Positions 5,443-52,715 of a DNA stretch of 64,000 nucleotides are shown here, piece after piece. The DNA is taken from positions 64,001-128,000 of IMG/VR virus record IMGVR_UViG_3300033068_001704; one strand, 5' to 3'. Below the pieces are notes generated by a model. It had not been told where the DNA came from. It was given only the letters and a program-made list of their open reading frames with translations, and did not search any database. The DNA comes from a virus (Duplodnaviria; Caudoviricetes). The translations under genes were made by a program, and so were the position numbers. How positions within the stretch are numbered: position 1 is the stretch's first letter; every line of letters begins with the position of its first letter.

Positions 5443-5612
5443 CCAACAGCGAGATCTTCCGGCGTGTCGCAGAGCACCAGCTCACCCCGAGTGAAGGGGT
5501 GGCTCTGATGCTTCAGCAGGACCGGGAAGATCTCGCTCGTCTGCGCCCCACATGGGTTCCGACATGGATCTGGGGCCGATGCGTCTCCCTGGTGGTCGGC
5601 CCACAGGCGTAA
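5439..5612 (+). CDS. Small hypothetical protein (57 aa, below the ORF-track cutoff)
   Basis: GTGA overlap with the upstream stop; ends in GCG-TAA inside the promoter motif. Confidence 0.5.
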   Translation: MTNSEIFRRVAEHQLTPSEGVALMLQQDREDLARLRPTWVPTWIWGRCVSLVVGPQA

Positions 5613-5621
5613 GATCTCAGA
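5607..5621 (+). promoter_or_regulatory. GCGTAA promoter-like motif, leaderless start
   Basis: GCGTAAG at 5607; ATG 5621 is 11 nt from the T; no SD. Confidence 0.6.
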
Positions 5622-5839
5622 TGGACGACGAGGAGCGGGTCCCTCCCGCAACGAACGAGCTTTGCCCGGCGTGCCTCGGCTCGTTGGGTCGTTCCACCGT
5701 GACCATCTACGTCGCTGGCACGGATGACAAGGAGACGATCTCCTTGGACATCGGGTGCTGGGCGAAAGCCGGCATGCCGAAGTGGTGGACTGGCAGACCG
5801 TCGCAGATGAACCTTCCTCCCGGGCGTAAGAGTCGGTAG
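5621..5839 (+). CDS. Small Cys-containing hypothetical protein
   Basis: CPAC motif; start chosen from promoter spacing; abuts the next ATG. Confidence 0.5.
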   Translation: MDDEERVPPATNELCPACLGSLGRSTVTIYVAGTDDKETISLDIGCWAKAGMPKWWTGRPSQMNLPPGRKSR

Positions 5840-6367
5840 ATGGATCAAGACAACGACGACGATCCGAGGATGCTCTCCCCCGAGCAGATGGAGGCCTTGA
5901 AGAGGGGCGAGCTGAGGTTCGAGGCGGTGGTCATCGCCAACCCCAGGAAGCTCGCATCCCAGGTGAAGCAAGTCCTCGTGGTCCGCAAGGACCTGAACAT
6001 GAGGAAGGGGAAGATCGCGGCGCAGTGCGGACATGCGGTCATGAAGGTGATCCTCGACCGGATGATCGTCCGGCCGGACACCGACAACGACGCAGCCACG
6101 GTGCGTGAGTTCCTCTTCAGCTACGCCCGTCCGAGCGCCTGGGCATCTTGGCTGGAGGGGAAGTACACGAAGATCTGCGTGTCCGTGAACTCCGAGGCCG
6201 AGCTGCTGGAGGTCTACGAGAAGGCGAAGCTGGTCGCCCCCGCATCCCTGATCCAAGACTCCGGACTCACTGAGTTCGGCGGCGTCCCCACCTACACGGT
6301 GGTCGCGGTCGGCCCCGCTTGGGCTGACGAGATCGACCCCATCACCGGTCATCTCCCTCTTCTCTGA
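5840..6367 (+). CDS. pth2: Peptidyl-tRNA hydrolase, Pth2 family
   Basis: KQVLVVRKDLNMRKGKIAAQCGHA, TKICVSV, IQDSGLTEF, TVVAVGP, IDPITGHLPLL are hallmark Pth2 motifs. Confidence 0.92.
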   Translation: MDQDNDDDPRMLSPEQMEALKRGELRFEAVVIANPRKLASQVKQVLVVRKDLNMRKGKIAAQCGHAVMKVILDRMIVRPDTDNDAATVREFLFSYARPSAWASWLEGKYTKICVSVNSEAELLEVYEKAKLVAPASLIQDSGLTEFGGVPTYTVVAVGPAWADEIDPITGHLPLL

Positions 6368-6435
6368 GGCCTGGTATGACGCTCGATTCGACGAAGCAGG
6401 AGGCCGCCATGATTTGAACCAAGGAGGTTCTCATC

Positions 6436-6642
6436 ATGTCGCGGTCGTTCAAGTCCTATCAGAAGCGCGATCCCAAGCGTACGGGAATCTTCTTGGGTGC
6501 CTACTTCAACACGTGGTGCGGGTTCACGTGCTGCGGGTTCAGAGGCCAGTCGAACCGCCCCTCAGCGAAGAGGGAGATCCGCGCCTGGAGACGGGCCCAA
6601 GACCGCGAGGCGGTCCGAGATGGGCTCGCGGATCGAGACTGA
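6436..6642 (+). CDS. Small basic hypothetical protein
   Basis: AAGGAGG SD upstream; MSRS start. Confidence 0.6.
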   Translation: MSRSFKSYQKRDPKRTGIFLGAYFNTWCGFTCCGFRGQSNRPSAKREIRAWRRAQDREAVRDGLADRD

Positions 6643-6654
6643 GGGTCATCAAGG

Positions 6655-6965
6655 TGAGAGTACACCCCCGAATCTGTGACGCGGCCGAGGCCATTCTCCG
6701 GGAGACCGACAACCCTGCGGTGATGTGGGGGGACTGCGGTCTCCTCGACATGATCGCCGTTCGGGCTGGTCTTGAGCGAGACGGGACGAAGTGGATGGGG
6801 GGCATCCCTCATCTTCACAGCCGGGTTCTCGACGCGTTGTCGAAGCAACCTGGGGGTCTGGTGGCCGGGACGACGCGCTGCGGGTCGAACCGTCGCGTGA
6901 GGATTTTCTGGCTTCCGGAGAAAGCTCCGAAGTGGGCGCGGCCCGAAGGCGTAAGAACCTCGTGA
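6655..6965 (+). CDS. Hypothetical protein (start uncertain)
   Basis: 3' part of the 6414..6965 ORF fills the gap; GTGA overlap with the next gene. Confidence 0.45.
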
Positions 6966-7825: not shown

Positions 7826-7847
7826 GGGGATTCGAACCTTCACCCGC

Positions 7848-7875
7848 TAGACTTCCTCGGCTCAGGTACTATCCT
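7848..7875 (+). promoter_or_regulatory. Sigma70-like promoter
   Basis: TAGACT-N16-TATCCT in the intergenic region before the leader peptide. Confidence 0.45.
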
Positions 7876-7885
7876 GTCTCCCACC

Positions 7886-7933
7886 ATGAATCTCCTGGCA
7901 CCCATGACCTTCTTGTAGATGCGCCGGCCTTAG
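7886..7933 (+). promoter_or_regulatory. Tandem leader uORFs MNLLAPMTFL* and MRRP*
   Basis: Two abutting in-frame mini-ORFs, both ending TAG, followed by hairpins; in frame with the 8006 gene. Confidence 0.45.
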
Positions 7934-8005
7934 CTCTCGTCCGCGTGGTCCCCCATCGCGGGTCGTTCCCTTTTGGACCGAACCCGAATCGATGAGGAGA
8001 GAACC

Positions 8006-9806: not shown

Positions 9807-10117
9807 AGCTCTACCTGGTCACGCGTCAGGATCTCCCCCCTGGCGCTCGGGCCGCTCAGCTCTGTCACGCGCTCCGCCAGTTCGGAGAAGATCACCCGGA
9901 GGTCGATCGGGACTGGTTCCGGCGCAGCAACACCCTGGTGTTGTTGGAAGGGAAGGACGAGCATGCTCTCTCCGATCTCGCGGACAAGGCGAGGTTGAGC
10001 GGGGTGCCCGTCGCGGTCTTCCGAGAACCCGACCTCGCCGATGCTCTGACTGCAATCGCCGTGGGGCCGAAGGGGAAGCGGCTCGTCCGTGGTCTCCCTC
10101 TGGCCCTGAGGGCGTAA
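9803..10117 (+). CDS. Second, short Pth2-like peptidyl-tRNA hydrolase
   Basis: KLYLVTRQDLPPGARAAQLCHA, TLVLL, FREPDL..LTAIAVGP, LPLAL. Confidence 0.85.
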   Translation: MKLYLVTRQDLPPGARAAQLCHALRQFGEDHPEVDRDWFRRSNTLVLLEGKDEHALSDLADKARLSGVPVAVFREPDLADALTAIAVGPKGKRLVRGLPLALRA

Positions 10118-10148
10118 CATACAGGGAGGCCTTCTGGGGCCTTCCTCT

Positions 10149-10223
10149 GATCCTATAGCTCCAATGGCAGAGCGGCTGGGCGCCTAACCCGGTGCGTTGC
10201 GGGTTCGAATCCTGCTGGGATCA
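10149..10223 (+). tRNA. Atypical tRNA, anticodon CCT (Arg), 6-bp anticodon stem, G33, no encoded CCA
   Basis: Acceptor GATCCTA/TGGGATC+A; D arm GCTC-CAATGGCA-GAGC; anticodon arm GCTGGG-CGCCTAA-CCCGGT; T arm GCGGG-TTCGAAT-CCTGC. Confidence 0.75.
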
Positions 10224-10276
10224 CTCCGGTTCACTTCGTTCTCTATGGGTTATCTGGTTCGAGGCCAGCTCAACCC

Positions 10277-10867: not shown

Positions 10868-10946
10868 TCTTTTTCCGGGTCTGAATCCGATCCGCGGCGT
10901 AAGATACCTGTCACCTCGGAGCTGCACTGGTTCCGGGGCGACATAC

Positions 10947-11329
10947 GGGGATGTAAAGGTATCGACAGGGGATACGATCTACTGTGTTGCGTGCAGGGGT
11001 TGGTCGGTGGGCCCCTACAACAAGCCGACCACACATAGCTGCGAACGATAACAGCTACGCCCAGGCCATCGCGGCCTGAGCCGTTGGGGTAGATGGTCCG
11101 ATTCATCTACTCTGACGTCATTCAAGTCGGTGTAACTCACGCTGGTGCGCTCAGCGGTGTGGGCCAAACAAAACTGAGAGCTGGTGGAGGGTACTCCGGT
11201 GCCCCTAACGGCAGCCCGCTTCAGGCATGAAGGGCCGTAAACCGCGCAAGCGGACTTCGAGATGGAGCTACGCACGTAGACGCACAGTAGAAGGTCTTCT
11301 GGACCCGGGTTCGATTCCCGGCATCTCCA
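10947..11329 (+). ncRNA. ssrA: tmRNA, tag peptide (A)ANDNSYAQAIAA*
   Basis: GGGGATG/CATCTCC-A acceptor with G3:U70; TCGAC after the D-like loop; 3' GGACCCGGGTTCGATTCCCGG T arm; tag ORF 11041..11079 preceded by TAGCT. Confidence 0.95.
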
Positions 11330-11334
11330 TGGAT

Positions 11335-11377: not shown

Positions 11378-11418
11378 CGGGGTCTCGGTACGAGATCTAT
11401 CTCACCCGCAAGGGTACG

Positions 11419-12203: not shown

Positions 12204-13325
12204 ATGTCAATGGACGAGTTGATCCCGGGGCAGTTCCGACAGTTCAAGGCAGCGACGAAGTTCCATCTCGGGAAGCTGTCGATCGATGTGCCCGAGGGGG
12301 AGACCGTCGAGTTCGATGGTCAGACCCTGCGGATGAAGGGCACGGAATACACGATCCCCGAGCTGCGCGCAGGCGTCAAGGTCGGATGGATCGTTCCCGT
12401 CGAGGTCATGCCGGCGGCGTACAAGGCGAAGCCCGCAGACGTCCGGGTGCGGTCCGCCCAGGACAAGAAGGGCGCGAAGACGAGCCTGGCGACGGTGCAG
12501 GACGACGAGCGTGATGTCGGTCCGGCCGTTCGGAAGAACGCCAAGGACACGGCGGAGAAGAAGGAGACCTTCTCGCGGGAGATCCGCGTTCAGGACGACG
12601 TCGAACGCGATGTCGGGTCGGCCGTGGGCCGCATCACAGGCGTGGAGAAGACCGCGGCGACCCCCGTCTCCTCGGGGGGTGTGGAATCCCAGAACCCCCG
12701 CACGATCGGGAAGATCGGTTCTTCCATGCGTGTGGTCTCCGACACGACCGAGGCGCAGGATGCGAAGCCGATCGGCCGCATCGCGACTCCCGCGGTCCAG
12801 AAGACCGTCATCTCTGATGCAGCCGCGGCTGCGCGCGCAGCGAAGAACCTCGACGACGGTCCGCCGCGTCGGGCCGCTGCTGCGGTCATCCCGGCCAAGG
12901 GCGCGCGTGATCTTCATGCCGCGGAGGCGGAGAAGGTCGAAGACATCATCGACGCCCTCGAACCCGAGGGTCGTGCGAAGATGATGGCGGAGCAGCGCAA
13001 GCAGAAGCTGGCGGGATCGAAGGCGTCGGCCCCGGTGGCCAAGGCAGTCGCGACCCCGGCTCCGGCAGCCAAGCCGAAGGTGGCGGCGAAGCCGCGTGCT
13101 CGGTCCGCGCCGACGACGGTCGAAGAGGTCATCGTTCGAGGTGACGAGATCGATCTCCCCGTGGGCATCAAGTGGGACCTCACGATCCACTGGCGCTCGC
13201 GCGCGAAGATCGCGTCCGAGAAGTACGGGTCGAACGCAGAGGTGCTCGCCGCCATCCGTGCGGTGGAGAGCCCGGCGGTCAACGCGCTCATCAACGAGCG
13301 CCTCGTGGCTCTCGCGAAGGCGTGA
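12204..13325 (+). CDS. Hypothetical Ala/Lys-rich protein
   Basis: GGAGG SD; strong codon bias; short internal repeats VQDD(V)ERDVG.AV. Confidence 0.8.
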   Translation: MSMDELIPGQFRQFKAATKFHLGKLSIDVPEGETVEFDGQTLRMKGTEYTIPELRAGVKVGWIVPVEVMPAAYKAKPADVRVRSAQDKKGAKTSLATVQDDERDVGPAVRKNAKDTAEKKETFSREIRVQDDVERDVGSAVGRITGVEKTAATPVSSGGVESQNPRTIGKIGSSMRVVSDTTEAQDAKPIGRIATPAVQKTVISDAAAAARAAKNLDDGPPRRAAAAVIPAKGARDLHAAEAEKVEDIIDALEPEGRAKMMAEQRKQKLAGSKASAPVAKAVATPAPAAKPKVAAKPRARSAPTTVEEVIVRGDEIDLPVGIKWDLTIHWRSRAKIASEKYGSNAEVLAAIRAVESPAVNALINERLVALAKA

Positions 13326-13386
13326 TTCGCCGCTCGGTTTCTCGCGGATATTGATCCCCGGTTGAGGCGCAAGCCCCCGTAGGGAC

Positions 13387-14121
13387 ATGAACGGTCGAGA
13401 CAAGAAGGCATCCAGCCAAGTCGCCTGGTCCCTCCTCACTGAGGGGGTGACCCAGGCTCGGGTCGATACCCATCGCCTCCGACTCATGGTCGATCGCGCT
13501 CTGGCGATCGTGGACCAGTCGGAGGCGAAGGATCACATCTACCAGGTGGCTGGGGACCTGATCGAGGCGGTTCCCTCACGTCTCTCTGACATCGAACGAT
13601 CGCTGGACCGAACGTCGTACGCCCTGGTTGTCATGGGGGACGACTTCCTCCGAGGCCGGATCCCGTTCGATGATCGGCACGAGGTAGATGAAGCCGTGAA
13701 GTCCGCCCCCTTCTCCACACAGCGCGCGAAGGAGTCCCGGCCGAACGCGGCACGTGTGGCATCCCGAGCCCTCGCCGTTCGCGTCGCCCTTCGGTACGCA
13801 GCCAACACCAGCGAGCATCACTTCTTCGACAACCCGGAGAAGCGTGAGGTCCTGGAGTTCGCGGACTCAGGCGCTCTCTCGAATCTCCCCTCGGTCGCCA
13901 TCAAGTCCGTGAAGGATTCAGACGGTCCGGACCGGACGGTGGCTGAGGCTCGTGCCGAGGCGAAGAGCGCTCCTCCGGACCCGGAGAAGATCGAGAAGAA
14001 GCCGGGAGGGAAGCAGTTCTCTACCCTCAACCGCTACGTCGTCGAGACGGAGCAGCCCCGGGCTGGCCGCGTACCTCAGGGTCGTAGCGAGCTTCCGAAG
14101 GCGAAGCCCCAGGCGAGGTAA
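13387..14121 (+). CDS. Putative virion protein with KKAS/RVAS motifs
   Basis: KKASS at the N-terminus; ARVASRALAVRVALRYAA internally. Confidence 0.7.
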   Translation: MNGRDKKASSQVAWSLLTEGVTQARVDTHRLRLMVDRALAIVDQSEAKDHIYQVAGDLIEAVPSRLSDIERSLDRTSYALVVMGDDFLRGRIPFDDRHEVDEAVKSAPFSTQRAKESRPNAARVASRALAVRVALRYAANTSEHHFFDNPEKREVLEFADSGALSNLPSVAIKSVKDSDGPDRTVAEARAEAKSAPPDPEKIEKKPGGKQFSTLNRYVVETEQPRAGRVPQGRSELPKAKPQAR

Positions 14122-18901: not shown

Positions 18902-19942
18902 ATGCCGTTCATCTGTTTGAGTCGTTCTGACATCCCGAACGGGTCGCTTCAGGTGGGCGACCTGTGGCCGAACCGTTCCAAGTACAATCCGACGCTCGGG
19001 CCTCGCGCCCAGGGGCCTCGGTACCTGAGCGCGCCTTCGACCTCGACGGTCACCCTGTCCAGCACGGGGGCCACGCAGCGCTACTTCGCGACGGCCCAGT
19101 CGGGTCTCGCGGCGTACCTGATCGCCAACGTCGAGGGCGTCTCCGGGGCAGCTCTCACGCCGGCTCAGGCGGACACGATCGCGGCTTCCATCATCGAGGC
19201 GATGCGGGCGGGTGAAGACCTGGACACCGACGCCTTGAACGCCATCGTCGCGGCTGATGCAAGCGTGGCGGCAACGGGCGTCCTGACGCTCTCTGGGAAC
19301 GCGGCGAACACCAACACGGTGACGATCGGATCGAAGGTCTACACCTTCCAGACGGCCCTCACGAACGTGGATGGCAACGTGCTGATCGGTGGGAGCGCGA
19401 GCGCTTCGATCGACAACCTGGTCGCGGCGATCACCCTCGGGGCAGGTGCGGGCACCACTTACGCAGCGGCGATGACGCTTCATCCGACCGTCACGGCAGC
19501 AGCGGGTGCTGGCGACACGATGGATGCCACGGCGAAGACCGCCGGGACGGCGGGCAACGCCATCGCCACGACCGAGACGCTCGGGTCCGGGGTCTGGGGC
19601 GCGGTGACCTTGACCGGCGGCGTGGACGTGAGCCTGACGGGTGGGGATTCGACGGCCACGGTCCTCGACGTCCTGAGGATCCTCTCGGGGGTCACCTACA
19701 CCGTGCCGGCCGGCACGATCGTTCAGGTCGTCGTCTCGACCTTCAACCCCCAGGCAGATCCCGAGGCGTTCAACACGGCTGGGTTCGGCGACGGGGTGAA
19801 GGACATCCTCGACTCGGACGGGGCGTTCTACATCTCTCTCGCAGAGGGTCAGCTCGCCGGGTTCACGTCTTCGGCGTTCACGTACCTCGGGGTGACCGGT
19901 TCGGCCCTCGTCGTGTACGACAACGAGGGGCTCGTTCTCTGA
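18902..19942 (+). CDS. Putative virion structural protein (paralogue 2) with inserted ~115-aa domain shared with the tail sheath
   Basis: Same N- and C-terminal parts as 18119; insert KVYTFQT...LHPTVTAAAGAGDTM.ATAK.AGTAGNAI. Confidence 0.75.
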   Translation: MPFICLSRSDIPNGSLQVGDLWPNRSKYNPTLGPRAQGPRYLSAPSTSTVTLSSTGATQRYFATAQSGLAAYLIANVEGVSGAALTPAQADTIAASIIEAMRAGEDLDTDALNAIVAADASVAATGVLTLSGNAANTNTVTIGSKVYTFQTALTNVDGNVLIGGSASASIDNLVAAITLGAGAGTTYAAAMTLHPTVTAAAGAGDTMDATAKTAGTAGNAIATTETLGSGVWGAVTLTGGVDVSLTGGDSTATVLDVLRILSGVTYTVPAGTIVQVVVSTFNPQADPEAFNTAGFGDGVKDILDSDGAFYISLAEGQLAGFTSSAFTYLGVTGSALVVYDNEGLVL

Positions 19943-28292: not shown

Positions 28293-28342
28293 CTCGTCCC
28301 TTTTCCGTTCGATAACCTCACGTATTTCGGGGAGTTGACACG

Positions 28343-29299: not shown

Positions 29300-29407
29300 G
29301 AGATTCGGACCGGATATAGGAAGGGGTATCCTATCCCCAGGACCATGGTTCTCGGTTGGTCTTCGGGAAATCTAAGGTGCAGTGGGGGTGAGGGCGTAAT
29401 AGGCCTG

Positions 29408-29896
29408 GTGGAAGCACCTACCCCTGAAGATCTCCGCCGATTCGAACTCAACCTCATCGCCGTGAAGGACTGGGGTGAGGCCCCGGAAGAAGCCCGTCTC
29501 ATCGCCGAGCGGGAGTCCAAGCAGGGCGTGCCCACCGGCATCTCTCACGATGAGAAGTTCGGTTGGGTCGTCCTTCAATCCTCCGGGCAGGGCCCGTACC
29601 TGATCTGGTGGGCGGGGGATCCCACCCTGAGCGACCTTCCGACCAACCGCGCCACGAACATCGACATCTCACTCTTCGAGAGCCGAGACTATCCTGGGAT
29701 GTTCTGGGCCCGAGCGACGGGGCGGGGTGCCGATGGGGGGGTCGTCTCAGTGGATACCCGCCAGTTCCTGGACCGCCCCACGAGTGAGAGCAAGGCGGCT
29801 GGGGATGCCGTTTACCTCTTCTTGCTCGTGAGGGGAGGCGTCGATCCGCGTCAGAGGACGGCCCAGCTCAGGCAGGCACTGGGGCGCGAGGCGTAA
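29408..29896 (+). CDS. Hypothetical protein (leaderless GTG start)
   Basis: GCGTAAT at 29394 places GTG 29408 at 11 nt; in frame with the 29345 ORF. Confidence 0.55.
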   Translation: MEAPTPEDLRRFELNLIAVKDWGEAPEEARLIAERESKQGVPTGISHDEKFGWVVLQSSGQGPYLIWWAGDPTLSDLPTNRATNIDISLFESRDYPGMFWARATGRGADGGVVSVDTRQFLDRPTSESKAAGDAVYLFLLVRGGVDPRQRTAQLRQALGREA

Positions 29897-29903: not shown

Positions 29904-30929
29904 GTGTCCTCCGCAGCCAACTTCCAGAAGGCCTTCGACCAGTTCTCCGCGATCGTCGCCATGGAGAAGCAGGAGAGGTCCCGATCTCGGGAGAACCGGC
30001 TCTCCGCTCTGGAAGAGAAGAAGCTCCGGCGTGCCCTCTACGTCACCTTCACCTCGCTGATCGCGACGGGGAGGAAGTTGGCGACGTGGGGGGTCGATAC
30101 GCGTGACATCCCTCGCGGGGAAGAGAAGTTCTTCGAGATCGCGGCCAGGACGTTCCTCACGATCCGAAAGATGCCTACGGATCCACTCGTGTGGTTCGAG
30201 CGTCATCGTGGGTGGGCGGAGTACCTCCTCAAGGTGGCGGGTTGGCCGGAGAGAGTCATCGGGACCTCGCAGGTCGAGGCCGTGGGTCCGCTCCGGGTCC
30301 ACAACACGATCGGGGCTGACGCTCAGAGGTTCTCTGAGATCCTTGCTCTCGTTGGAGAGGCGAATCGCGTTCTCTCGGAGACCCTCGACTTCTCCAAGAC
30401 GTTGTACGGGGACGTCTACTTCGTGGGCCAGCTCCAGAAGGCTTCAGCGGTTGCCTGGTACTCCCTGAAGGAGGACAAGGTCTACGTCCGGCCCTTGGAG
30501 AGGAAGGGTCTCGATGACCTGGAGAGTCTTCTCCATGAGCTGGGGCACCGGTACTGGTACCGCGTCATGGACAAGACGCGACGTGAGGCGATCTCTCAGA
30601 TCTGGTTCGACCTAAGGAGCGGGTCGAAGGTCGTGGTCCCTCCGATCCGAGTCGGAGACCCGTTCCCGATCCCAGTACAAGGGCATCGGGTTCGACCTCA
30701 TGTCGTTGGAGTCGATGCGATGAACTACCGGCTGTCCACCGGTGGCCTGGTCTCACGTCGGTCTGCTGACGAGGTGGTGAAGCGGAACCTGGTGAGAGGA
30801 AGGTTCCCCTCCCTCTACTCGATGAAGGACATCACGGAGTTCTTCGCGGAGTGCTTCGCGTTCTTCGTCCTCAACCGGAAGCTGTCCCCCGAGCTGTCCG
30901 GGAGGTTTCGTTCTGCGTTGAAGGCGTAA
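29904..30929 (+). CDS. Zincin (lethal-factor-like) metallopeptidase, untagged paralogue
   Basis: LLHELGHRYW plus PSLYSMKDITEFFAECF. Confidence 0.75.
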   Translation: MSSAANFQKAFDQFSAIVAMEKQERSRSRENRLSALEEKKLRRALYVTFTSLIATGRKLATWGVDTRDIPRGEEKFFEIAARTFLTIRKMPTDPLVWFERHRGWAEYLLKVAGWPERVIGTSQVEAVGPLRVHNTIGADAQRFSEILALVGEANRVLSETLDFSKTLYGDVYFVGQLQKASAVAWYSLKEDKVYVRPLERKGLDDLESLLHELGHRYWYRVMDKTRREAISQIWFDLRSGSKVVVPPIRVGDPFPIPVQGHRVRPHVVGVDAMNYRLSTGGLVSRRSADEVVKRNLVRGRFPSLYSMKDITEFFAECFAFFVLNRKLSPELSGRFRSALKA

Positions 30930-30936: not shown

Positions 30937-31302
30937 ATGAACATACGCAAGGACTGGTTCTTCGAGGAAGAGGATCAGGCCCCTCCCCCGGTAGCGACCC
31001 GCAGGAACCTTCACACGGAAGGTGTGAAGCGGGATGCGGCCCTCGACCTACTCAAGGCGGCCAGGGCCGAGCTTATCTCCGCTGCGACCAAGATCGCTCA
31101 CCTGATCTGCGCGACGACGGGACGCGTGACTTCGGTGGAGGTCCTGGCTGAGATGGAGAAGGACCCCCGTTACGCCCAGCGCCTCAAGGAGGTCGATCCT
31201 CGTTGGATCGGGGCGGTCTTCAGGTCTGGGTGGACTCAGGTCGGGCAGGAGGCGAAGGGGTCCCATAAGCGCAAGGTCGCGATCTGGACGGTAGAGAAGT
31301 GA
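30937..31302 (+). CDS. Hypothetical protein (possible winged HTH)
   Basis: DPRWIGAVF motif; leaderless motif upstream. Confidence 0.6.
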   Translation: MNIRKDWFFEEEDQAPPPVATRRNLHTEGVKRDAALDLLKAARAELISAATKIAHLICATTGRVTSVEVLAEMEKDPRYAQRLKEVDPRWIGAVFRSGWTQVGQEAKGSHKRKVAIWTVEK

Positions 31303-31961
31303 CCAAGAGGCAGAGTCATAGCGTAGGTGGTCTCACCTTCGCGACGAAGAAGGCTCTTCTGGCTCACATCCAGTCGATTCTGTACACGTACAATACGACG
31401 GATGCTGTCAGCCAAGAGCACCAGGAGTTCCTCGTCGATCTTCTTGGTAGACACCCCAATGTGGGCGAGAAGATCGGGGTGGGGGTCCGGTCGATGCACG
31501 TTCGATCTGATGGTCATGGCGGGCAGTGTTTCGAGCTGGTTAGACACGACGGTTCGAGCACTGACTGGTCTTTCATGGTCTGTCTTCGACCCCCGCCTCT
31601 TGGGGCCGATTTCTACGCTGCTTGCCGTTGTGCGGTCAGAGATCAGGTCGAGGCATACAAGGCATCCAGGTTTGGGCGTTTCGCTACGGCGATCTGCGAC
31701 ATCTCCGGTGAAGAAGTTCTGAGAGAGTCGAGTCACGTGGACCATGTCCCTCCTCTCACGTTTCGAAAACTCGCGGACGATTTCTCCGTAGTTCACGGGA
31801 TCGATCCCGCAACGGAGCCGGTTCTCGGAATGGGTGATGGGGATACCCAGAAGTACCTGGCCAACGAGCGCACACGTTCACTCTGGAGTGCGTACCACAG
31901 GACGAACGCTCGACTTCGATTGCTGGATGCACACGTCCATCGCACTCAACCTCGGGCGTAG
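31299..31961 (+). CDS. DUF3223 (DCL-like) domain with HNH-like C-terminus
   Basis: LLGRHP...KIGVGV...CFELVRHDGSSTDWSF..C; HVDHVPP.TF; YH...ARLRLL. Confidence 0.65.
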   Translation: MTKRQSHSVGGLTFATKKALLAHIQSILYTYNTTDAVSQEHQEFLVDLLGRHPNVGEKIGVGVRSMHVRSDGHGGQCFELVRHDGSSTDWSFMVCLRPPPLGADFYAACRCAVRDQVEAYKASRFGRFATAICDISGEEVLRESSHVDHVPPLTFRKLADDFSVVHGIDPATEPVLGMGDGDTQKYLANERTRSLWSAYHRTNARLRLLDAHVHRTQPRA

Positions 31962-32331: not shown

Positions 32332-32565
32332 ATGTATCGAGTGAATGCCAAGGGAGGCTCTGTGCGAGTCGAGAAGATCCTCAGCCGCGAGGAAGTCTGC
32401 GAGATCGTGAAGGCTCACCTCACCAAGACCGGGCAAATCCCTGAGGACGCTGGGGTTGAGATCAACGAGGTCGGCAACGGAACCCGGAACGAGTGGGTGT
32501 CGCCGAAGTCCCGGAGCTTGTTCCCGACCGTCCGGATGTCGTGGGATGAGCCTGTAGGGAAGTGA
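32332..32565 (+). CDS. Hypothetical protein
   Basis: Fills the gap; overlaps the helicase start. Confidence 0.5.
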   Translation: MYRVNAKGGSVRVEKILSREEVCEIVKAHLTKTGQIPEDAGVEINEVGNGTRNEWVSPKSRSLFPTVRMSWDEPVGK

Positions 32566-34283
32566 TGCGTACCTACGGCTCCATCGAACTCAAGGACGGG
32601 CACTGGCAAATCGAGGCTGAGCCTCACGTCATGATCCGCCTGAAGAGGCTCTTCCCTCGCGTGAGCACGCAGATGGGGGTCCTCTCGATCCGAGACACAG
32701 ATGAGGTCTCGAAGGACCTCGCCTGGATCTTGGAGCGGTACCCGCTGGAGGTCGTCGGGGAACACCTGACCCACATGCGAGGGCGTGCGAGCACGTTCGA
32801 CGAGCGTTCGGAGGCCTTCGCTTCGGTTCTCTCAGGGAAGCTCGATGCCCGTCCCTTCGATCTCGCCGTTCCTGCCCGGGACTACCAGAGGGTCGCAGCA
32901 GATCTCGCCCTTCGGATGAAGGGGCTGCTCATCGCCGACGACCTCGGCATCGGGAAGACCTGCGCGGCGATCTGCGCTCTCACGGACCCGTCTACGCGTC
33001 CGACCGTCGTCGTGACCCTCACGCACCTCACGGATCAGTGGGCGCGGGAGATTCAGAAGTTCGCGCCAAACCTCACCACCCACATCATCAAGAAGGGGAC
33101 GCCCTACGACCTTTTGGCGGCGATGAAGAAGAGCACGGGAGAGGCCCGCTTCCCCGATGTCGTCATCATCAACTACCACAAGCTCGCAGGCTGGGCCGAG
33201 ACGTTCTCTGGCGTCATGAAGATGGTCGTCTTCGACGAGATCCAGGAGCTTCGTCACGATGGCAGCGCCAAGTACAACGCAGCCATGCACATCCGTGCAG
33301 GGGCTGTGTACTGCGTCGGCCTGAGCGCGACCCCCATCTACAACTACGGGAGCGAATTCTACCACGTTCTCAACGTCATCCGACCGGATGCGCTTGGGAC
33401 GAAGATGGAGTTCATTCGCGAATGGTGTAAGGGAAACCTGGATCAGTCAGGGCGGGGGAAGATCTCTGATCCGAAGGCCTTCGGGGCTTTCGTGAGGGAT
33501 TCCGGGATCATGATCCGACGTACCCGCTCGGACGTGGGCAGGGAGCTTCCGGCGCTGACGAAGGTCCCCCATCACGTCGATGCAGATCTCAGGGAGCTGG
33601 ACAAGGCCCGAGACTCCGTGACCGAGCTGGCGAAGCTCATCCTTGCGCGGCAGGGGACGACTCTCGACCGGATGAAGGCCGGGGGCGAGATCGACTACAA
33701 GATGCGCCAGGCGACGGGCATCGCCAAGGCGCCGTTCGTCGCAGAGTTCGTGCGGATGCTCGTGGATTCGGGCGAGAAGATCGTCCTCTACGGATGGCAC
33801 CATGCCGTCTACGACATCTGGAAGAAGCGCTTCAAGGGCCACGTGAAGTGCGTCCTCTACACCGGGGAGGAGACCCCGGCCCAGAAGGAGAAGGCTCGCC
33901 TCGATTTCATCGAGGGGGATGCCCAGGTCCTCATCATGAGCCTGCGTGCTGGTGCCGGCCTCGATGGGATCCAGCACGCCTGTCGGACCGTCGTGTTCGG
34001 TGAGCTGGACTGGTCTCCCGGCGTCCACGAGCAGTGCATCGGACGCGCCTACCGTGATGGGCAGCCCGACCCGGTCATCGCGTACTTCCTCGTGTCGGAT
34101 GAGGGGTCGGACCCGGTCATCGCGGATGTGCTCGGCCTCAAGAAGGCGCAGATCGAGGGCGTCAGAGATCCGAACGCGGCCCTGACGGAGATCGTGGAGG
34201 CGTCTCATGACGGGATCCGTCGGCTCGCTGAGTCGGTTCTGAGGTCGAAGGGGATCGACCCCAGGCAGTACGAGGCGGCGTAA
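32565..34283 (+). CDS. SNF2-family helicase/ATPase
   Basis: ADDLGIGKT (I), DEIQ (II), LSATP (III), GAGLDG (V), QCIGRAYRDGQ (VI). Confidence 0.9.
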   Translation: MRTYGSIELKDGHWQIEAEPHVMIRLKRLFPRVSTQMGVLSIRDTDEVSKDLAWILERYPLEVVGEHLTHMRGRASTFDERSEAFASVLSGKLDARPFDLAVPARDYQRVAADLALRMKGLLIADDLGIGKTCAAICALTDPSTRPTVVVTLTHLTDQWAREIQKFAPNLTTHIIKKGTPYDLLAAMKKSTGEARFPDVVIINYHKLAGWAETFSGVMKMVVFDEIQELRHDGSAKYNAAMHIRAGAVYCVGLSATPIYNYGSEFYHVLNVIRPDALGTKMEFIREWCKGNLDQSGRGKISDPKAFGAFVRDSGIMIRRTRSDVGRELPALTKVPHHVDADLRELDKARDSVTELAKLILARQGTTLDRMKAGGEIDYKMRQATGIAKAPFVAEFVRMLVDSGEKIVLYGWHHAVYDIWKKRFKGHVKCVLYTGEETPAQKEKARLDFIEGDAQVLIMSLRAGAGLDGIQHACRTVVFGELDWSPGVHEQCIGRAYRDGQPDPVIAYFLVSDEGSDPVIADVLGLKKAQIEGVRDPNAALTEIVEASHDGIRRLAESVLRSKGIDPRQYEAA

Positions 34284-34291
34284 GGGTTCCC

Positions 34292-34516
34292 ATGGAAACG
34301 TTGGAGACGCTGACCCCCAAGAAGATCTCCGAGCTGATCTCGGAGCACCTCAACCCGGTTGAGCGCGAGGAAGTCCAACGGGCTGCCCTCTCGAATCCCG
34401 ACCAGTTCTCCCTGATGCTCTCGGTGAGCACGCAGAGGCACTACGAGAACGGCAGGGCAGTCGCGATGGACATGCTTCGGGTGGCCCGCGACGTGATCCG
34501 CAGCGGCAAGGCGTAA
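34292..34516 (+). CDS. Small hypothetical protein
   Basis: Flanked by GCGTAA motifs. Confidence 0.6.
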   Translation: METLETLTPKKISELISEHLNPVEREEVQRAALSNPDQFSLMLSVSTQRHYENGRAVAMDMLRVARDVIRSGKA

Positions 34517-38770: not shown

Positions 38771-38794
38771 CCGCCTGGGTGCGTAACATCTCGG

Positions 38795-39082: not shown

Positions 39083-39223
39083 CAACTCTATCCGCGTCGG
39101 CTGATAGCAGGGGGGTAGAAACCCTTCTGTCACCCGTTCCTTGTCCCGAAGGGCCCGGTTCATCGGGTCAGAAGAAGCGTAATGAACCGGGTTCAGCGTT
39201 CACGTGAGAGGAGCTGGAGAACA

Positions 39224-40729
39224 ATGAGAGCAAGTGTTTGGGGTTTCTTGTGTTTCGTGATGATCGGTTGTGTGGCCTCCGGCCCAGAGGCCGAGGTGAG
39301 TCTGGCGGAGCAGGATCTGCTCGGTGGGGCCAGCCTCGCATCTGTGGCGCGGGGGCGTGAGCTGTTTCGTCACGAGGCGATGGGCGGCAACGGTCGCACG
39401 TGTGAGTCCTGCCACACCACCGTCGAGCGCGCGATCGACGTCGGCTACCGGCGTGGTCGGCAGCTTGGGCTCAGCAAGCCGCAGGCTGCTCTCATGGGTC
39501 TCGACTTCGCGCAGCGCTTCGCCACGTTCGACCTCGCACCCGAGTTCGCTCGCGAGCTGTTCGCCCTCGACCCGAACGATGGGTTGTTCCGCACGATCGA
39601 TTCCGATGGGGGCAACAGCAACTCCTACGAGCTGGTTCAGCAGGGTCTCATCCGCATCCCGATGACGCTGCACCCGCGTGTGCAGGTGATCGGCTGTGGC
39701 GCACCGGGCTCGGACTGCGAAGTGCTGCCGAACGGTCAGCATCGAATCGTGGTTCTGCGGAGCCCGCCCACGACGCTGAACACCATCCTTCAGGAGGTCG
39801 ATGCGAACGCTCCGGGCCGCCCCGGCATGCTGATGTGGGACGCACGTGAGGTCGATGCGGTGACGCAGACCGGGAGCGCGTTCAACGATCACTTCGAGCG
39901 CACCGAGACGCCGACGCTCCAGCAGCTCGAAGACATCGCGGCCTTCGAACGCAACACTTTCACGGACCTGGCTTCTGCGTACTACGCGGTCACCGGGAAC
40001 GACCCCGGCCTTCCTCCGTGCACGACCCCGAGCGAGTGCCGCGGCCGGGAGTTCTTCATCGAACAGCCCATCCTCGCGAGTGACATGGCGCACCGTGGTC
40101 TCTGTGCGCAGTGTCACAGCGGACCTGCTCTCAACCGATCTGGCATCTTCCATCGCCTCCAGCCCCCGGTTCCCCCGGTCGGTTCGATCTGCCCCTGCCA
40201 GGACGGCAGCATGCCGGTCGCTGGGAACTGTGGGCTGTCGGTGCCGATGGAGGGCCCCATCGCAACGCCCATCGGGGCGATGTGCCTGCATCGCATCTCG
40301 GCGCCCAACGCGGACCCGCCGGGTCGCCCTGGGTTCATCGACCGCACCTTCGTCTGGGTGGATGTCCCCGGCTGGGGCACTCGCGTGATGCAGGGACACG
40401 ATCCTGGACGTGGTGGCATCACCGGCGACCCGTGCTCGGAGCTGTCGTCGCAGTGCCTCATCGCCAGTGCGAATCCCGCCGACCCCTCGCAGGGCGGTGG
40501 TGTCCTCGTTCCGATGTTCCGCATCGCCTCGCTTCGCGGAGCCGGCAGACGCACCCACTTCGATCACAGCAACATCGCGCTCACGCACCGTGAACAGGTG
40601 GACGACGTGGCGGATGGCTTCGCAGCGTTCGTCCCGCTGTTCCAGTCTCAAGGGGATCCGAACGCCACGGCGTTCCTGATGTCCGAGCAGGATCGCGAAG
40701 ACGTCGCGGCGTACCTGGGCCGCCTCTGA
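39224..40729 (+). CDS. Di-haem cytochrome c (peroxidase/MauG-like) lipoprotein
   Basis: Signal peptide with lipobox-like MIGC; CESCH and CAQCH; GRELF..GNGRTC, LMWD.R, DPGR, SLRG, C-terminal ED.AAYL. Confidence 0.75.
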   Translation: MRASVWGFLCFVMIGCVASGPEAEVSLAEQDLLGGASLASVARGRELFRHEAMGGNGRTCESCHTTVERAIDVGYRRGRQLGLSKPQAALMGLDFAQRFATFDLAPEFARELFALDPNDGLFRTIDSDGGNSNSYELVQQGLIRIPMTLHPRVQVIGCGAPGSDCEVLPNGQHRIVVLRSPPTTLNTILQEVDANAPGRPGMLMWDAREVDAVTQTGSAFNDHFERTETPTLQQLEDIAAFERNTFTDLASAYYAVTGNDPGLPPCTTPSECRGREFFIEQPILASDMAHRGLCAQCHSGPALNRSGIFHRLQPPVPPVGSICPCQDGSMPVAGNCGLSVPMEGPIATPIGAMCLHRISAPNADPPGRPGFIDRTFVWVDVPGWGTRVMQGHDPGRGGITGDPCSELSSQCLIASANPADPSQGGGVLVPMFRIASLRGAGRRTHFDHSNIALTHREQVDDVADGFAAFVPLFQSQGDPNATAFLMSEQDREDVAAYLGRL

Positions 40730-42913: not shown

Positions 42914-43405
42914 TTACGCCTGCGACCCCGAGGGGGACATGTCGTCGATGAGCGAGTCGAAGTCGTGCCGGGAGTAGACGTAGGAGCCCCGCTTGCCACG
43001 ACGGGAGATCTTGCCGCTCTGCGTCATGCGGTACAGGGCGCTCTGGATGGACTTCGGCCGCGTGAAGGAGTCCTTCACGATGACACGCGCCATGATGTCG
43101 CCTTCCTCCACGGTGATGACGGAGGGGTTGCTGAAGATCTCTTCCACGACCTCGTGGGTGATGGCAGCCACGTTCATCTGACGGCCGCGGGTGAGGCTCT
43201 CCTGCGGGTCGAGGCCGACCGACTTGAGGATGGCAGCGAGACGGTCCGTATCCATCTCCACCTTCTTCAGCTCTGCTTCGATCCGTTCCCGCTCCTTGGT
43301 GAGATGCGTTCGCATCTCGGAAAGGGCTGCGTACCCGATCCTCGCATCGCGTAGGAACGCGTCGAAGTCGAACCGGCTCTCGATCTCTTCATTTTCGATG
43401 GGCAT
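42914..43405 (-). CDS. Coiled-coil plus winged-HTH-like protein
   Basis: SIQSALYRM...GKISRRG..G.Y; ATG 10 nt after the minus-strand GCGTAAG. Confidence 0.6.
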   Translation of the reverse strand: MPIENEEIESRFDFDAFLRDARIGYAALSEMRTHLTKERERIEAELKKVEMDTDRLAAILKSVGLDPQESLTRGRQMNVAAITHEVVEEIFSNPSVITVEEGDIMARVIVKDSFTRPKSIQSALYRMTQSGKISRRGKRGSYVYSRHDFDSLIDDMSPSGSQA

Positions 43406-43411: not shown

Positions 43412-43428
43412 CTTACGCCGCGTGTAAG
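43412..43428. promoter_or_regulatory. Back-to-back divergent GCGTAAG/GTGTAAG motifs
   Basis: CTTACGCCGCGTGTAAG between divergent starts at 43405(-) and 43436(+). Confidence 0.6.
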
Positions 43429-43956: not shown

Positions 43957-44733
43957 ATGATCAGATCGTTTCTACTCGCGGCGCTCGTCGCCCTGGTTCC
44001 CGTTCAGGCCTTCGCTCAGGAGAGGCCGGTGGCCGAGGCCCAGCATCTCTACGAGCTGGGTGTGATCTCCTACGAGCGGCAGGAGTGGGCACGGTGTGCC
44101 GACTTCTTCGAGCGGAGCTTCACCCTGGTGTTCGCGCCTGAGCTGCTGTTCAACATCGGTCGCTGCCACGCGCGAGAGGGCGGGGCCACCGGTGAGATCG
44201 ATTCGCTTCAGCGGGCTATCTTGGCGTACGCCCGGTACCTCCGTGAGCCGGTGACGATGGAGCCGAGCGAGCGCGCTGAGGTCGAGGCGGAGGTTGCGCG
44301 GATCCGAGCCAGGGTGGCAGAGATCCGGGCCTCGGTGCTCCCCATCGAACGACAGACGGTTGTCCCGGTCGTGGTGGTGGAAGAGCCGCAGGTCGAAGCC
44401 CCGCTCGCCGAAGAGACTCGGGTCGAGACCTCCCCCGAGGTGTTCGCGGTGGAGGCCCCGACTTCGGCCGAGTTCGGGTTCTCAGGCACGGTGACTGGAG
44501 CTGCCCTCACAGGGGTCTCTCTCATCACGGCGATCATCCTGGGGGTCGTGGCTCAGGAACGCTACGAGACCCTCGCGGAGACGTGTGGTCGTTCCCCTGA
44601 GGGGTGCTCGGCTGGTCAGATCCAAGAGGTCGATTCTCTCGGGGTGGCTGCCAACGCGATGTTCGGGGTGAGCGGCGCGCTCGCGGCAGGGACCGGGGTC
44701 ATGTTCGGGTTGGAGGTCTCTGGATCGTTCTGA
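43957..44733 (+). CDS. Secreted/membrane TPR protein of myxobacterial type
   Basis: Signal peptide ending AFA-Q; TPR-like LYELG...F.RSF...PELLFNIGRC; C-terminal hydrophobic helices flanking a C..C loop. Confidence 0.7.
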   Translation: MIRSFLLAALVALVPVQAFAQERPVAEAQHLYELGVISYERQEWARCADFFERSFTLVFAPELLFNIGRCHAREGGATGEIDSLQRAILAYARYLREPVTMEPSERAEVEAEVARIRARVAEIRASVLPIERQTVVPVVVVEEPQVEAPLAEETRVETSPEVFAVEAPTSAEFGFSGTVTGAALTGVSLITAIILGVVAQERYETLAETCGRSPEGCSAGQIQEVDSLGVAANAMFGVSGALAAGTGVMFGLEVSGSF

Positions 44734-47256: not shown

Positions 47257-47278
47257 CCTGATCCTTAGATCTCAGGTG

Positions 47279-47315: not shown

Positions 47316-47331
47316 GGGCGTAAGAGGCTGC

Positions 47332-47667: not shown

Positions 47668-47668
47668 T

Positions 47669-48379: not shown

Positions 48380-48385
48380 GCGCCA

Positions 48386-48613: not shown

Positions 48614-48807
48614 GGCAAACTTTCGGTATGGATGTTCTATCCGAACCCCCCATTATGTACGACGACCTAAGCTGGATGGAGATCTTCTGCCTAGCAGTTC
48701 TCCTTGGTGTCATGTGGGCCATCTCGGAGATGGAACAGCGAGGAAAGCGGACGAAGTAGTGTTTCGTGGCCGGTAGAGTCGCTCACCCTCAGGGTGGAGA
48801 AGACTGA

Positions 48808-49107: not shown

Positions 49108-49141
49108 ACCCGAGGATCCTCCTCGGGTCTCGTGAGGTGCC

Positions 49142-50530: not shown

Positions 50531-50537
50531 GGTCTAG

Positions 50538-51038
50538 GTGAAGCAGACCCTGAAGCGTCGGTACGTATCCCCGCTGGTGAAGCGAACTCAGGTTCAGCTT
50601 GACCGGAGGGATCTCCAATTCTTCGGCCGGTGCCTCATCAAGTTCGTACGGGAGGAAGCCGAGAAGGACGCCGCGAAGATGGGCCAGCTCCCGACGGCCC
50701 CTGAGTTCTACAAGTCGTTCTCCTTTCGAGTGAAGGGGAATGGGATCGAAGTCATGTCGAGCTGGCCGTGGATCCGCGTATACACGGAGGGCACGAACGG
50801 TCCGTTCCGCATGAAGTGGCTGACCCGCCAAGAGGGGGTCAACGTCGTTCCTCTACGTGGGAAGTTCGGGGAGGTCGTCTTCCGGACGGCCCCGCTCACC
50901 ACAGACAAGGCGTGGATCCATCCCGGGATCGCTCGGCACACCTTCATTCAGCGTGCGTTCAAGCGCGCTCAGAAGTCCTGTGTGGAGCGGTTCCTCCTCA
51001 AGAACCTCGGACAGATCTTGGATGGTGCGCTCGGATGA
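50538..51038 (+). CDS. Probable neck/tail-completion protein (HK97 gp10-like)
   Basis: Y.EGT...W.HPG...F.QRA pattern. Confidence 0.5.
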   Translation: MKQTLKRRYVSPLVKRTQVQLDRRDLQFFGRCLIKFVREEAEKDAAKMGQLPTAPEFYKSFSFRVKGNGIEVMSSWPWIRVYTEGTNGPFRMKWLTRQEGVNVVPLRGKFGEVVFRTAPLTTDKAWIHPGIARHTFIQRAFKRAQKSCVERFLLKNLGQILDGALG

Positions 51039-51673
51039 AAGAGGTAGAGATCGTTTGCCTGGGAGATTCGGCCCACATTCCGGACCTCGGGCTGAAGTTG
51101 AGGCGAGGGGCGAAGGTCGCGGCCACGCTCACGATGGTGAGTGGGTCTCGTGATCTTGCCGAGCTGAAGCGTCTCGGGGTGGTGGCGGTGACAGAGTTGA
51201 AGGCTCAGGCGATCCGTCGGGACGCCCCGGTCGCTCAAATCCCTTCCCCCAAGAACCCCCCGCCCCCCCTCCCTGCTACGCGGCCGATGGCTCCGACCGT
51301 CCCGGATGAAACGGCCCATCTTCTGAGGGGGATCTTGGAGGAGATCAAGGGTCTGCGAGCAGACCTCAAGGCGCGACCTGTTCAGGAGGCACGTCCGGAG
51401 ATCGACCTCGGGCCCATGGTCTCGGCAATCCAGAGTGCCCTCAACCGTCCCGGGGTGGACTCGGGGCGACGGGTGGAGACCCGCCACGAAGTTGAGGCAG
51501 GTGACCTGAGCCGGGAGGAGCGGTTCATCCCGAGCGGTATCGTCTCAGGAAACCTCAAATCTGAGATCGCAACTCAAGATTCTTCTTCGGAGAACTCGGG
51601 CCTCGATGAGGCTGAGGCGCTTCTGAAGCAGGTTCGACGAGGTGCGAAAGATGCGAAGAAGAAGGCCGGGTAA
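51035..51673 (+). CDS. Hypothetical protein, Pro-rich linker
   Basis: ATGA overlap; directly upstream of the actin gene. Confidence 0.65.
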   Translation: MKEVEIVCLGDSAHIPDLGLKLRRGAKVAATLTMVSGSRDLAELKRLGVVAVTELKAQAIRRDAPVAQIPSPKNPPPPLPATRPMAPTVPDETAHLLRGILEEIKGLRADLKARPVQEARPEIDLGPMVSAIQSALNRPGVDSGRRVETRHEVEAGDLSREERFIPSGIVSGNLKSEIATQDSSSENSGLDEAEALLKQVRRGAKDAKKKAG

Positions 51674-51680
51674 CCTCGAC

Positions 51681-52715
51681 ATGGCGAAGAGCGACAGCAC
51701 CGACGAGAAGCGCACCGACGAGAAGATGGGTGTGGGACTCGACGTTGGGACGATGAATCTGGTGTCGGCACGCCGCACCCCGAAGGGTGTCGAGACGCGT
51801 CGGATGCGGGATGCGTTCCTTGATCTTCCCCCCGAGTCGAAGAAGATGCTGAAGCTCTCGGGCGTCAGCTACATCGATCGGGGGGATGAGATCCTCATCC
51901 TCGGAGACGCGGCTCTCGACACCGCGAACATCTTCGGTCGCGAGGCACGCCGACCGCTCTCGGGTGGTCTCGTCTCCTCGTCCGAGGTGGATTCGTTGGA
52001 GGTGCTGGGCCTCCTCATCCGCAACGTGCTCGGGGAGCCCAAGGAGAAGGGGGAGCACTGCTACTTCTCGGTGCCGGCAGCCCCGATCGATCTCGTGGGT
52101 CGGGACGTGGTCTACCACCGAGGTATCTTCGAGCGCATCGTGTCGGAGTGCGGGTACACCCCGACTTCCAGCAACGAGGCGATGGCGATCATCTACTCGG
52201 AGGCGGCGAAGGACAACTTCTCCGGCATCGCGATCTCGTTCGGTTCGGGCATGAGCAACGTCGCGCTCGCCGTGAACACGATCGAGGGCCTGACGTTCTC
52301 GGTCGGCCGTGGGGGTGACTGGATCGACTCAGGGGCGGCGAAGTCCCTCGGGTCCACTCAGGCACGCATCTGCTCGATCAAGGAGAAGGGCATCGACCTG
52401 AACGCCCCGGTGGGTCGTGACCAGGAGGCGCTCGCCTTCTACTACAAGAACCTCATCGAGTACGTGCTCGACCAGATCGCGGCGCAGTTCAAGTCCATCG
52501 AGGGCAAGTTCGCTCTGCCCAAGGCCATCCCGATCATCATCTCGGGTGGCACCTCGAAGGCGGGTGGGTTCACCGAGTTCTTCACCTCGGTCTTCGAGAA
52601 GAAGCGGAAGAAGTTCCCGATCGACGTGAGTGAGATCCGCGCAGCCAGCGACCCGCTCAACGCAGTGGCGAACGGACTGCTCGTTCAGGCGCTTCAGGAG
52701 TACACCGACGACTGA
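51681..52715 (+). CDS. Actin-like ATPase (MreB/MamK-like superfamily)
   Basis: Phosphate-1 VGLDVGT, connect NEAMA, phosphate-2 ISFGSGM, adenosine IISGGTS, terminal AVANG. Confidence 0.85.
   Translation: MAKSDSTDEKRTDEKMGVGLDVGTMNLVSARRTPKGVETRRMRDAFLDLPPESKKMLKLSGVSYIDRGDEILILGDAALDTANIFGREARRPLSGGLVSSSEVDSLEVLGLLIRNVLGEPKEKGEHCYFSVPAAPIDLVGRDVVYHRGIFERIVSECGYTPTSSNEAMAIIYSEAAKDNFSGIAISFGSGMSNVALAVNTIEGLTFSVGRGGDWIDSGAAKSLGSTQARICSIKEKGIDLNAPVGRDQEALAFYYKNLIEYVLDQIAAQFKSIEGKFALPKAIPIIISGGTSKAGGFTEFFTSVFEKKRKKFPIDVSEIRAASDPLNAVANGLLVQALQEYTDD

Follow-up and report, generated by a model that had tools for sequence, protein, structure and literature searches.

Known Phage Promoter Systems and the GGCGTAA Word

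In the Thermus phages phiYS40 and Lalka27a, phage-specific -10 words give rise to middle and late transcripts that have no leader (bioRxiv 10.64898/2026.04.20.719267). The word of the Thermus phages is TAGGGT, accompanied by a C at -25; it fits the host TANNNT pattern, and the starts were mapped by RNA-seq 6 nucleotides (nt) downstream (bioRxiv 10.64898/2026.04.20.719267). Here, we analyze another word, r-GGCGTAA-s, lying just upstream of many genes in a stretch of 64,000 nt (hereafter, the window), which represents bases 64001–128000 of one 222,154-bp IMG/VR virus contig (IMGVR_UViG_3300033068_001704; Duplodnaviria, Caudoviricetes; G+C 63%), referred to as G000. According to our analysis, this word would be, with a probability of roughly 65%, a phage promoter devoid of a -35 element and giving rise to leaderless mRNAs.

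The G000 contig is linear, with a CheckV completeness estimate of about 50%; it encodes tail, portal, and replication functions as well as about 38 tRNAs and one transfer-messenger RNA (tmRNA). Its 241 gene calls are crude and were made in the analysis itself. Its true relatives were recruited via a tail-module protein and the portal, and are G008 (167 kb), G010 (266 kb), and G009 (485 kb, 92% complete), which have 84–109 of the 241 G000 gene calls in common with it; the DNA identity between G008 and G010 is about 80%. These four genomes provided 97 start-associated sites of the word.

As in the Thermus phages, a conserved and phage-specific word is present in the -10 region in many copies per genome and with no normal -35; in both cases, no recognisable phage sigma factor or polymerase is seen, and a factor acting on the host RNA polymerase is invoked. 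In contrast to the Thermus word, the one described here is GGCGTAA, lacks a T at position 6, and has no conserved element upstream of it. When the 97 sites are compared with TANNNT, the T and the A are invariant, but the base at T+5 is a T in only 36 of them. The start codon follows TAAnnn by 4–5 nt in G000 and G009 and by 5–6 nt in G008 and G010, which is close to the 6-nt rule of the Thermus phages.

The -10 element of sigma-28 (FliA/WhiG) is (-15)GCCGATAA(-8) (PMC12784957). Both words are G+C-rich, measure 7–8 bp, and have a CG core and a terminal TAA; moreover, were transcription to begin on the start codon, the TAA would occupy -10 to -8 (or -11 to -9), and the sigma-28 element ends at -8. 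The differences are that GGCGTAA departs from GCCGATAA by one substitution and one base fewer, that the -35 TAAA(G) box, required about 15 bp upstream in sigma-28 promoters, is not conserved here, and that no FliA-like sigma factor was found in the G000 contig or in G009.

The late promoters of phage T4 have the word TATAAATA, read by gp55 with gp33 and the sliding clamp. They resemble the sites described here in being one-piece, nearly invariant -10 words (8 bp in T4) with no -35 and with many copies in a large phage genome; unlike GGCGTAA, however, the T4 word is A+T-rich, and T4 late mRNAs carry a leader that includes a ribosome-binding site. In G000, PF04542, TIGR02937, and phrog_351, a set without a gp55-specific profile, matched no sigma protein of the region-2 type. 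Lastly, lambdoid morons and the promoter-early stem-loop (PeSL) cassettes of T4-type phages are single genes inserted, with their own promoter, between conserved genes. Gene-sized indels bounded by the word, upstream of single genes, recall these elements, from which they differ in having no terminator or stem-loop partner and, in two cases inspected, in that the word is not repeated where the insert begins on its other side. A literature search for the GGCGTAA word returned primer noise only.

A Gene-Start Signal at a Fixed Distance from the Start Codon

The word is a real gene-start signal, far from chance. Bare GCGTAA is mildly enriched in the window (17 copies vs. 7.8 ± 2.9 in shuffled sequences), and the enrichment and spacing that the first-pass annotation had asked to be compared with shuffles are borne out: GCGTAA-N7-8-RTG occurs 10 times in the window, whereas 100 shuffles gave 0.50 ± 0.72 and never more than 3. 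Over the 222-kb contig, 18 out of 47 GCGTAA copies have a coding ATG or GTG 10–11 nt after the T, against a background of 1.4% (binomial p 2e-21); a start was considered as coding when it opened an open reading frame (ORF) of at least 40 codons with a positive coding score. GCGTAA ranks first among 3,728 hexamers, the next unrelated hexamer being 14 orders of magnitude worse, and all the Shine–Dalgarno words are beaten; similarly, a 4-mer scan of G000 revealed that GTAA and CGTA at this position before plausible starts outrank GGAG. The word is the strongest positional 4-mer or 6-mer upstream of starts.

The full word is r-GGCGTAA-s, with a purine at the 5' flank and G or C at the 3' flank, and GGCGTAA is start-associated in 18 of its 31 copies. 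Its one-mismatch variants are not enriched genome-wide, and the same holds for GGCGTAG as a class. The logo of the 97 sites contains only GGCGTAA and the flanking r and s, and ATG accounts for 85% of the starts. Upstream of -5, every column stays within 0.2 bits, that is, no -35 element is detectable in this logo, nor does any stem-loop accompany the word.

Phylogenetic Distribution of the Word

The word is restricted to a small subclade of uncultured huge phages, represented by G000, G008, G009, and G010. In an unbiased scan covering all hexamers at all offsets between 8 and 22, GCGTAA comes out on top in G008 (16 of 42 copies, p 3e-15) as well as in G009, of which 220 kb were scanned (p 9e-8). 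When the pattern is counted against a reversed-pattern control, the values are 21 vs. 3 in G010, 14 vs. 3 in G008, and 20 vs. 5 in G009, against 2 vs. 2 in G011, 2 vs. 4 in G012, 12 vs. 12 in G013, and 0 vs. 0–3 in G014–G016; the same scan returned Shine–Dalgarno words in G011 and G013. The excess is likewise absent from 160 helicase-related loci (2.2 Mb) and from 18 further portal relatives. The distance between the T and the start is 10–11 nt in G000 and G009 and 11–12 nt in G008 and G010, and the word is mostly not retained upstream of the orthologous genes in G008 and G009. A second motif considered for G008, GTGTATG, was rejected, being a tandem repeat within coding sequence.

Two genomes recruited via the helicase, G001 and G002, were rejected as true relatives, having only 11–17 of the 241 genes in common with G000, and were kept as a contrast; their promoters are of the classic TTGACA-N17-TAnnAT type. 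Searching metagenomes by helicase did not retrieve any closer relative, no match having a helicase identity above 67%. Contigs of relatives 92–99% identical to G000 occur in two sequencing runs.

A Candidate Promoter for Leaderless Transcripts

The word also precedes genes that are not translated. The T of the copy at 10112..10117 (+; GGGCGTAA), the TAA of which is the stop of an ORF ending at 10117, lies 34 nt before tRNA-Arg(CCT) (10149–10224), and that of the copy at 10897..10902 (+; CGGCGTAA) lies 47 nt before the phage tmRNA gene (10947–11332), which is one-piece, scores 143 bits in Rfam, and encodes the tag peptide ANDNSYAQAIAA; both RNA genes are apart from the main tRNA array. Outside the window, the T precedes tRNA-Lys by 42 nt in G000 and the only tRNA of G010 by 13 nt. 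The position of the word ahead of tRNA and tmRNA genes argues that the signal acts on transcription, not on translation. Moreover, the word is present before the first genes of minus-strand islands; for instance, the copy at 43413..43418 (-; CGGCGTAA) is located in a divergent intergenic gap, 10 nt (from its T) before ATG 43405 of a 163-aa ORF, which is the first gene of its island. RNA genes and opposite-strand islands preceded by the word fit a promoter from which transcription begins on the start codon or directly beside it.

As for the signals that might be expected in its place, GGAG, GAGG, or AGGA is found upstream of 2 of the 19 motif genes vs. 97 of the 222 other genes, and GGCGTAA itself is not GGAGG-like and does not qualify as a Shine–Dalgarno sequence. 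Two 20-kb scans each yielded 0 sigma-70-type promoters where about 2 were expected, and a pattern search over the whole 222 kb retrieved none. The first-pass annotation had proposed a dedicated promoter class making leaderless mRNAs; this is partly supported, in that the word is a dedicated gene-start signal with fixed spacing that replaces the Shine–Dalgarno sequence, whereas no sigma factor or polymerase common to all the motif-bearing phages emerged.

In the mechanism that we favor, the word would represent a one-piece promoter element in the -10 region, without a -35 partner. An RNA polymerase holoenzyme, which could consist of the host core enzyme plus a sigma or sigma-modifying factor, would melt the DNA at the TAA, and transcription would begin at a purine 10–11 nt past the T (11–12 nt in G008 and G010). 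The A or G of the ATG/GTG itself would be this purine at about half of the copies. An mRNA without a leader would, in turn, need no Shine–Dalgarno sequence. At the tRNA and tmRNA genes, the same start would leave a leader of 3–37 nt. Both the promoter function and the transcription start on the start codon are what we infer from the DNA sequence.

Several points weigh against this interpretation. Position 6 of TANNNT is not kept as T, as reported above (36 of 97 sites), and sigma-70-type start selection would be expected to leave more than 10 nt between the T and the start. The word is also present on four consecutive genes of the tail module (29394, 29891, 30924, and 31956), which is unusual for promoters and also fits a signal on polycistronic RNA. 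The depletion of the word within genes (6 and 6 vs. 21 and 25 in codon shuffles) is shared by other GTAA words and, therefore, is unspecific. Furthermore, in the approximately 50% complete G000 contig, neither a full sigma factor nor a T7-like polymerase or a two-barrel polymerase motif was detected with the profiles PF04542, PF08281, PF00940, TIGR02937, and phrog_351, by scanning 15 of the largest proteins against Pfam, or by searching for the DxDxD motif. G008 and G010 do encode an RpoH/RpoS/FliA-like sigma factor, but this has no homologue in G000 or in the 92%-complete G009; in G008, its gene (12797–13675) itself ends in GCGTAA and sits in a 24-kb region nearly without G000 homologues.

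The reader of the word may be a host sigma factor, a product of the missing part of the genome, or a factor that is not recognised as such. Some candidates were considered and discarded. The single DFDAD match in G000 belongs to a Baseplate_J-like protein and not to a polymerase. A sigma-region-4 match at G000 44060–44671 (L001:1366–1977) is present in both motif-bearing and motif-free relatives; its 203-aa product has a tandem pair of sigma-region-4-like helix-turn-helix domains but lacks region 2, is found with 33–65% identity in 8 out of 9 relatives, and is probably a small terminase and not the reader. The distance by which its gene precedes the portal gene ranges from 2.4 kb in G009 to about 10 kb in G000 and G010. 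For the seven genes restricted to the motif-bearing genomes (encoding 494, 67, 206, 212, 113, 95, and 219 aa), nothing informative was matched in Pfam or PHROG, and the 206-aa protein looks like a virion protein. A further, weak sigma-region-4 match had its source in a LAGLIDADG homing endonuclease with a C-terminal helix-turn-helix (window 2413–3357; Pfam 1.3e-18).

Stop Codons, Gene Boundaries, and Alternative Interpretations

The relationship between the word and the upstream gene can be of three kinds: 50 of the 97 sites are intergenic, 24 give the upstream stop codon, and 23 fall within the upstream frame in another phase. In G000, the TAA doubles as the upstream stop at 9 of 22 sites, and GCGTAA represents 12 of the 30 TAA stops of the gene calls. 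The first-pass annotation had described promoters fused to upstream stop codons, so that many genes end in Ala-stop. Such ends were recovered at 10117, 29896, 30929, 31961, 34283, 34516, and 42914, and that at 5612 is doubtful, the upstream open frame being nearly without coding signal. As a designed fusion, the idea is weaker than claimed, since the sharing is common without being a rule and is expected from tight packing: the word contains a TAA and leaves only 7–8 nt to the next start, so tightly packed upstream genes often end there. We read the sharing as a by-product of compaction, because an in-frame TAA necessarily ends the upstream gene.

The same observations bear on a rather unlikely alternative, in which GGCGUAA on a polycistronic mRNA replaces the Shine–Dalgarno sequence, either through stop-and-restart (the UAA, followed by re-initiation 7–8 nt downstream) or as the site of a phage ribosome-loading factor. 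The word does occupy the Shine–Dalgarno place, at -14 to -8 from the start, it occurs on runs of consecutive tail-module genes, where operon transcription is expected, and its TAA is a real upstream stop in the 24 sites just mentioned; moreover, terminators between the units are not enriched, and the phage has about 38 tRNA genes and a tmRNA. However, stop-and-restart does not suit the half of the sites that are intergenic, with no upstream ORF ending there, or the 23 in other frames, and the word is not complementary to the usual anti-Shine–Dalgarno tail at the 3' end of 16S rRNA. Untranslated tRNA and tmRNA genes are preceded by the word as well, and the first genes of opposite-strand islands need a promoter anyway. 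If true, this would mean that gene expression was re-wired at translation initiation; that a huge-phage subclade with its own tRNA genes (about 38) and tmRNA reads GGCGUAA on the RNA in place of a Shine–Dalgarno sequence appears improbable to us, by a shade more than the alternative as a whole.

A comparably improbable alternative is that the word works at the DNA level without being itself a promoter, as a cassette junction and recombination hotspot or as the operator of a DNA-binding protein. The first-pass annotation had suggested that the motif may mark gene-shuffling junctions, and the comparison of G008 with G010 agrees with this to the extent that gene-sized indels end at the word. Two extra G008 genes (about 700 and 500 nt), absent from G010, are each inserted precisely between the upstream stop codon and the GGGCGTAA of the next gene, and the indels end 3–4 nt upstream of the word. 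Homology breakpoints coincide with the word at 6 of 20 sites, against 18 of 383 in a crude control set of gene starts (p 5e-4). In the tail module, different unique small genes bearing the word are located between the same conserved neighbors in different phages. That whole-gene insertions stop at the 5' edge of the word implies that it travels with the downstream gene, a linkage that also counts in favor of the promoter reading.

The role as a recombination site is weaker than claimed. No second copy of the word is present at the left end of the insert in the two indels inspected, and, according to this, the word acts as the 5' boundary of the functional unit of the downstream gene and not as a demonstrated recombination site. 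A fixed distance of 10–11 nt from the start codon is needless for such a site, and the 7-bp word is not palindromic and has no inverted repeat; no integrase was noticed near the word, though integrases were not specifically searched for. The word genes tend to be without homologues in the relatives (6 of 21 with homologues vs. 113 of 220), but this surplus of accessory genes does not reach significance (p 0.07, or 0.15 when size-matched). The related proposal, that each such gene is a minimal self-expressing unit, fails on the terminators: terminator-like sites are at chance level (11 vs. 10.4 expected), and without terminator enrichment the genes are not insulated self-expressing units.

The least probable alternative is RNA processing, in which a phage or host endoribonuclease recognises GGCGUAA and cuts about 10 nt downstream, freeing leaderless mRNAs and tRNA/tmRNA precursors: it would account for a word that is strand-specific, keeps a fixed spacing, and stands before both ORFs and RNA genes, but no nuclease candidate was found, known nucleases generally cut in or next to their recognition word and not 10 nt off, and the first gene of a minus-strand island would still need a promoter, no other conserved word being present there.

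Sites in the Window

All of the 14 GCGTAA copies originally listed (12 on the plus strand, with 42919 and 43418 on the minus strand) were confirmed, together with the spacing of 10–11 nt between T and start and its outliers of 13 nt (5824) and 8 nt (34511).

The spacing is 11 nt at the following copies. The one at 5607..5612 (+; AGGCGTAA) precedes ATG 5621 of a 72-aa ORF, which ends at 5839 and has an alternative in-frame ATG upstream, at 5552. The intergenic copy at 29394..29399 (+; GGGCGTAA) is followed by GTG 29408 of a 162-aa ORF with no homologue in the relatives. The copy at 34278..34283 (+; CGGCGTAA) supplies the TAA stop of the SNF2 helicase gene (32562–34283) and precedes ATG 34292 of a 74-aa ORF; base 34284 is missing in the contig of a relative about 92% identical, where the spacing would be 10 nt. 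The copy at 38781..38786 (+), which reads TGCGTAA (the first G being replaced by T), precedes ATG 38795 of a 95-aa ORF (phrog_11947) with homologues in G008 and G010, and the intergenic one at 47318..47323 (+; GGGCGTAA) precedes ATG 47332 of a 111-aa ORF. On the minus strand, the TAA of the copy at 42914..42919 (AGGCGTAA) is the stop of the gene 43405–42914, and ATG 42905 opens a 93-aa ORF.

A 10-nt spacing is shared by the minus-strand copy 43418, described above, and by three plus-strand copies with AGGCGTAA. These are located at 6949..6954, before GTG 6962 of a 287-aa NUDIX-like ORF ending at 7825; at 29891..29896, where the TAA is the stop of 29408–29896 and GTG 29904 opens a 341-aa tail-module ORF; and at 30924..30929, where the TAA is the stop of 29904–30929 and ATG 30937 opens a 121-aa ORF. 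Concerning the outliers, the copy at 5824..5829 (+; GGGCGTAA) lies 13 nt from ATG 5840 of a 175-aa ORF ending at 6367, and the upstream ORF reads across the word and has its TAG stop directly before this ATG; the copy at 34511..34516 (+; AGGCGTAA) gives the TAA stop of 34292–34516, 8 nt from ATG 34522 of a 50-aa ORF.

Variants of the motif had also been proposed, of which only that at 31956..31961 (+; GGGCGTAG, GGCGTAG) has the right geometry, the TAG being the stop of 31299–31961 and GTG 31970, 11 nt away, opening a 119-aa ORF. The core differs at 3352 (GAGTAG) and 51668 (GGGTAA), and 43422 is the same site as 43418. Three additional GCGTAA copies lack a start codon at the right distance and are probably chance copies: 39177–39182 (+; AAGCGTAA), the last A of which is the first base of an ATG; 19459..19464 (-), preceded by CT and antisense within a gene, with no start codon downstream; and 31170–31175 (-).

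Further Observations

Within the RecD-like helicase gene (26616–28961), GGCGTAA is followed 10 nt on by an in-frame GTG (G000 28391–28404); this could correspond to a nested, leaderless 185-aa C-terminal product or be a chance copy. The genes at G008 62875–63570 and 64299–64798, which G010 lacks (loci L202 and L285 contain the two versions), both begin with M..LRSKVIRLAH.NP.LRPHLLPLLK, and their upstream regions have GGCTAT, not GGCGTAA, in common.

A second signal, GGGGGTAAnnnC-N12-CGTTAC, occurs 10 times in G000, its TAA and CGTTAC being 16 nt apart, each time 4–30 nt before a gene. The copies, all outside the window, are at G000 24, 1314, 194796, 209796, 211104, 212579, 214132, 215661, and 218322 (+) and 145388 (-); they cluster at both ends of the contig, several of the genes have Shine–Dalgarno sequences, and the signal is absent from G008, G009, and G010. 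It may represent a separate, perhaps early, promoter class, with a spacing resembling that of ECF-sigma promoters.

In the interiors of G000 genes, CTCGAG, GTCGAC, GAGCTC, and CTGCAG never occur, vs. 57–164 expected from codon shuffles, CAGCTG occurs once and GATATC three times, and the non-palindromic GATAAG is absent vs. 46 expected; these absences look like restriction-site avoidance. Finally, window positions 39262–40700 are swapped for 1,293 unrelated bases in the contig of the relative about 92% identical, a stretch that covers the greater part of a 515-aa protein, whose haem-binding (CCP_MauG-like) matches are weak.

Significance for the Huge-Phage Subclade

For annotation, the word gives a simple rule with which start-codon calls can be corrected and small genes found in these genomes. 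Since it stays with the downstream gene across indels, it also marks the unit of gene gain and loss. If the word is indeed a promoter, this subclade of huge phages would mark many of its gene starts mainly by the transcription start and not by a ribosome-binding site; leaderless expression of comparable extent is documented for the Thermus phages. The 7-bp signal used would not be explained by any recognisable sigma factor common to the four phages, which would point to an undiscovered factor redirecting RNA polymerase.

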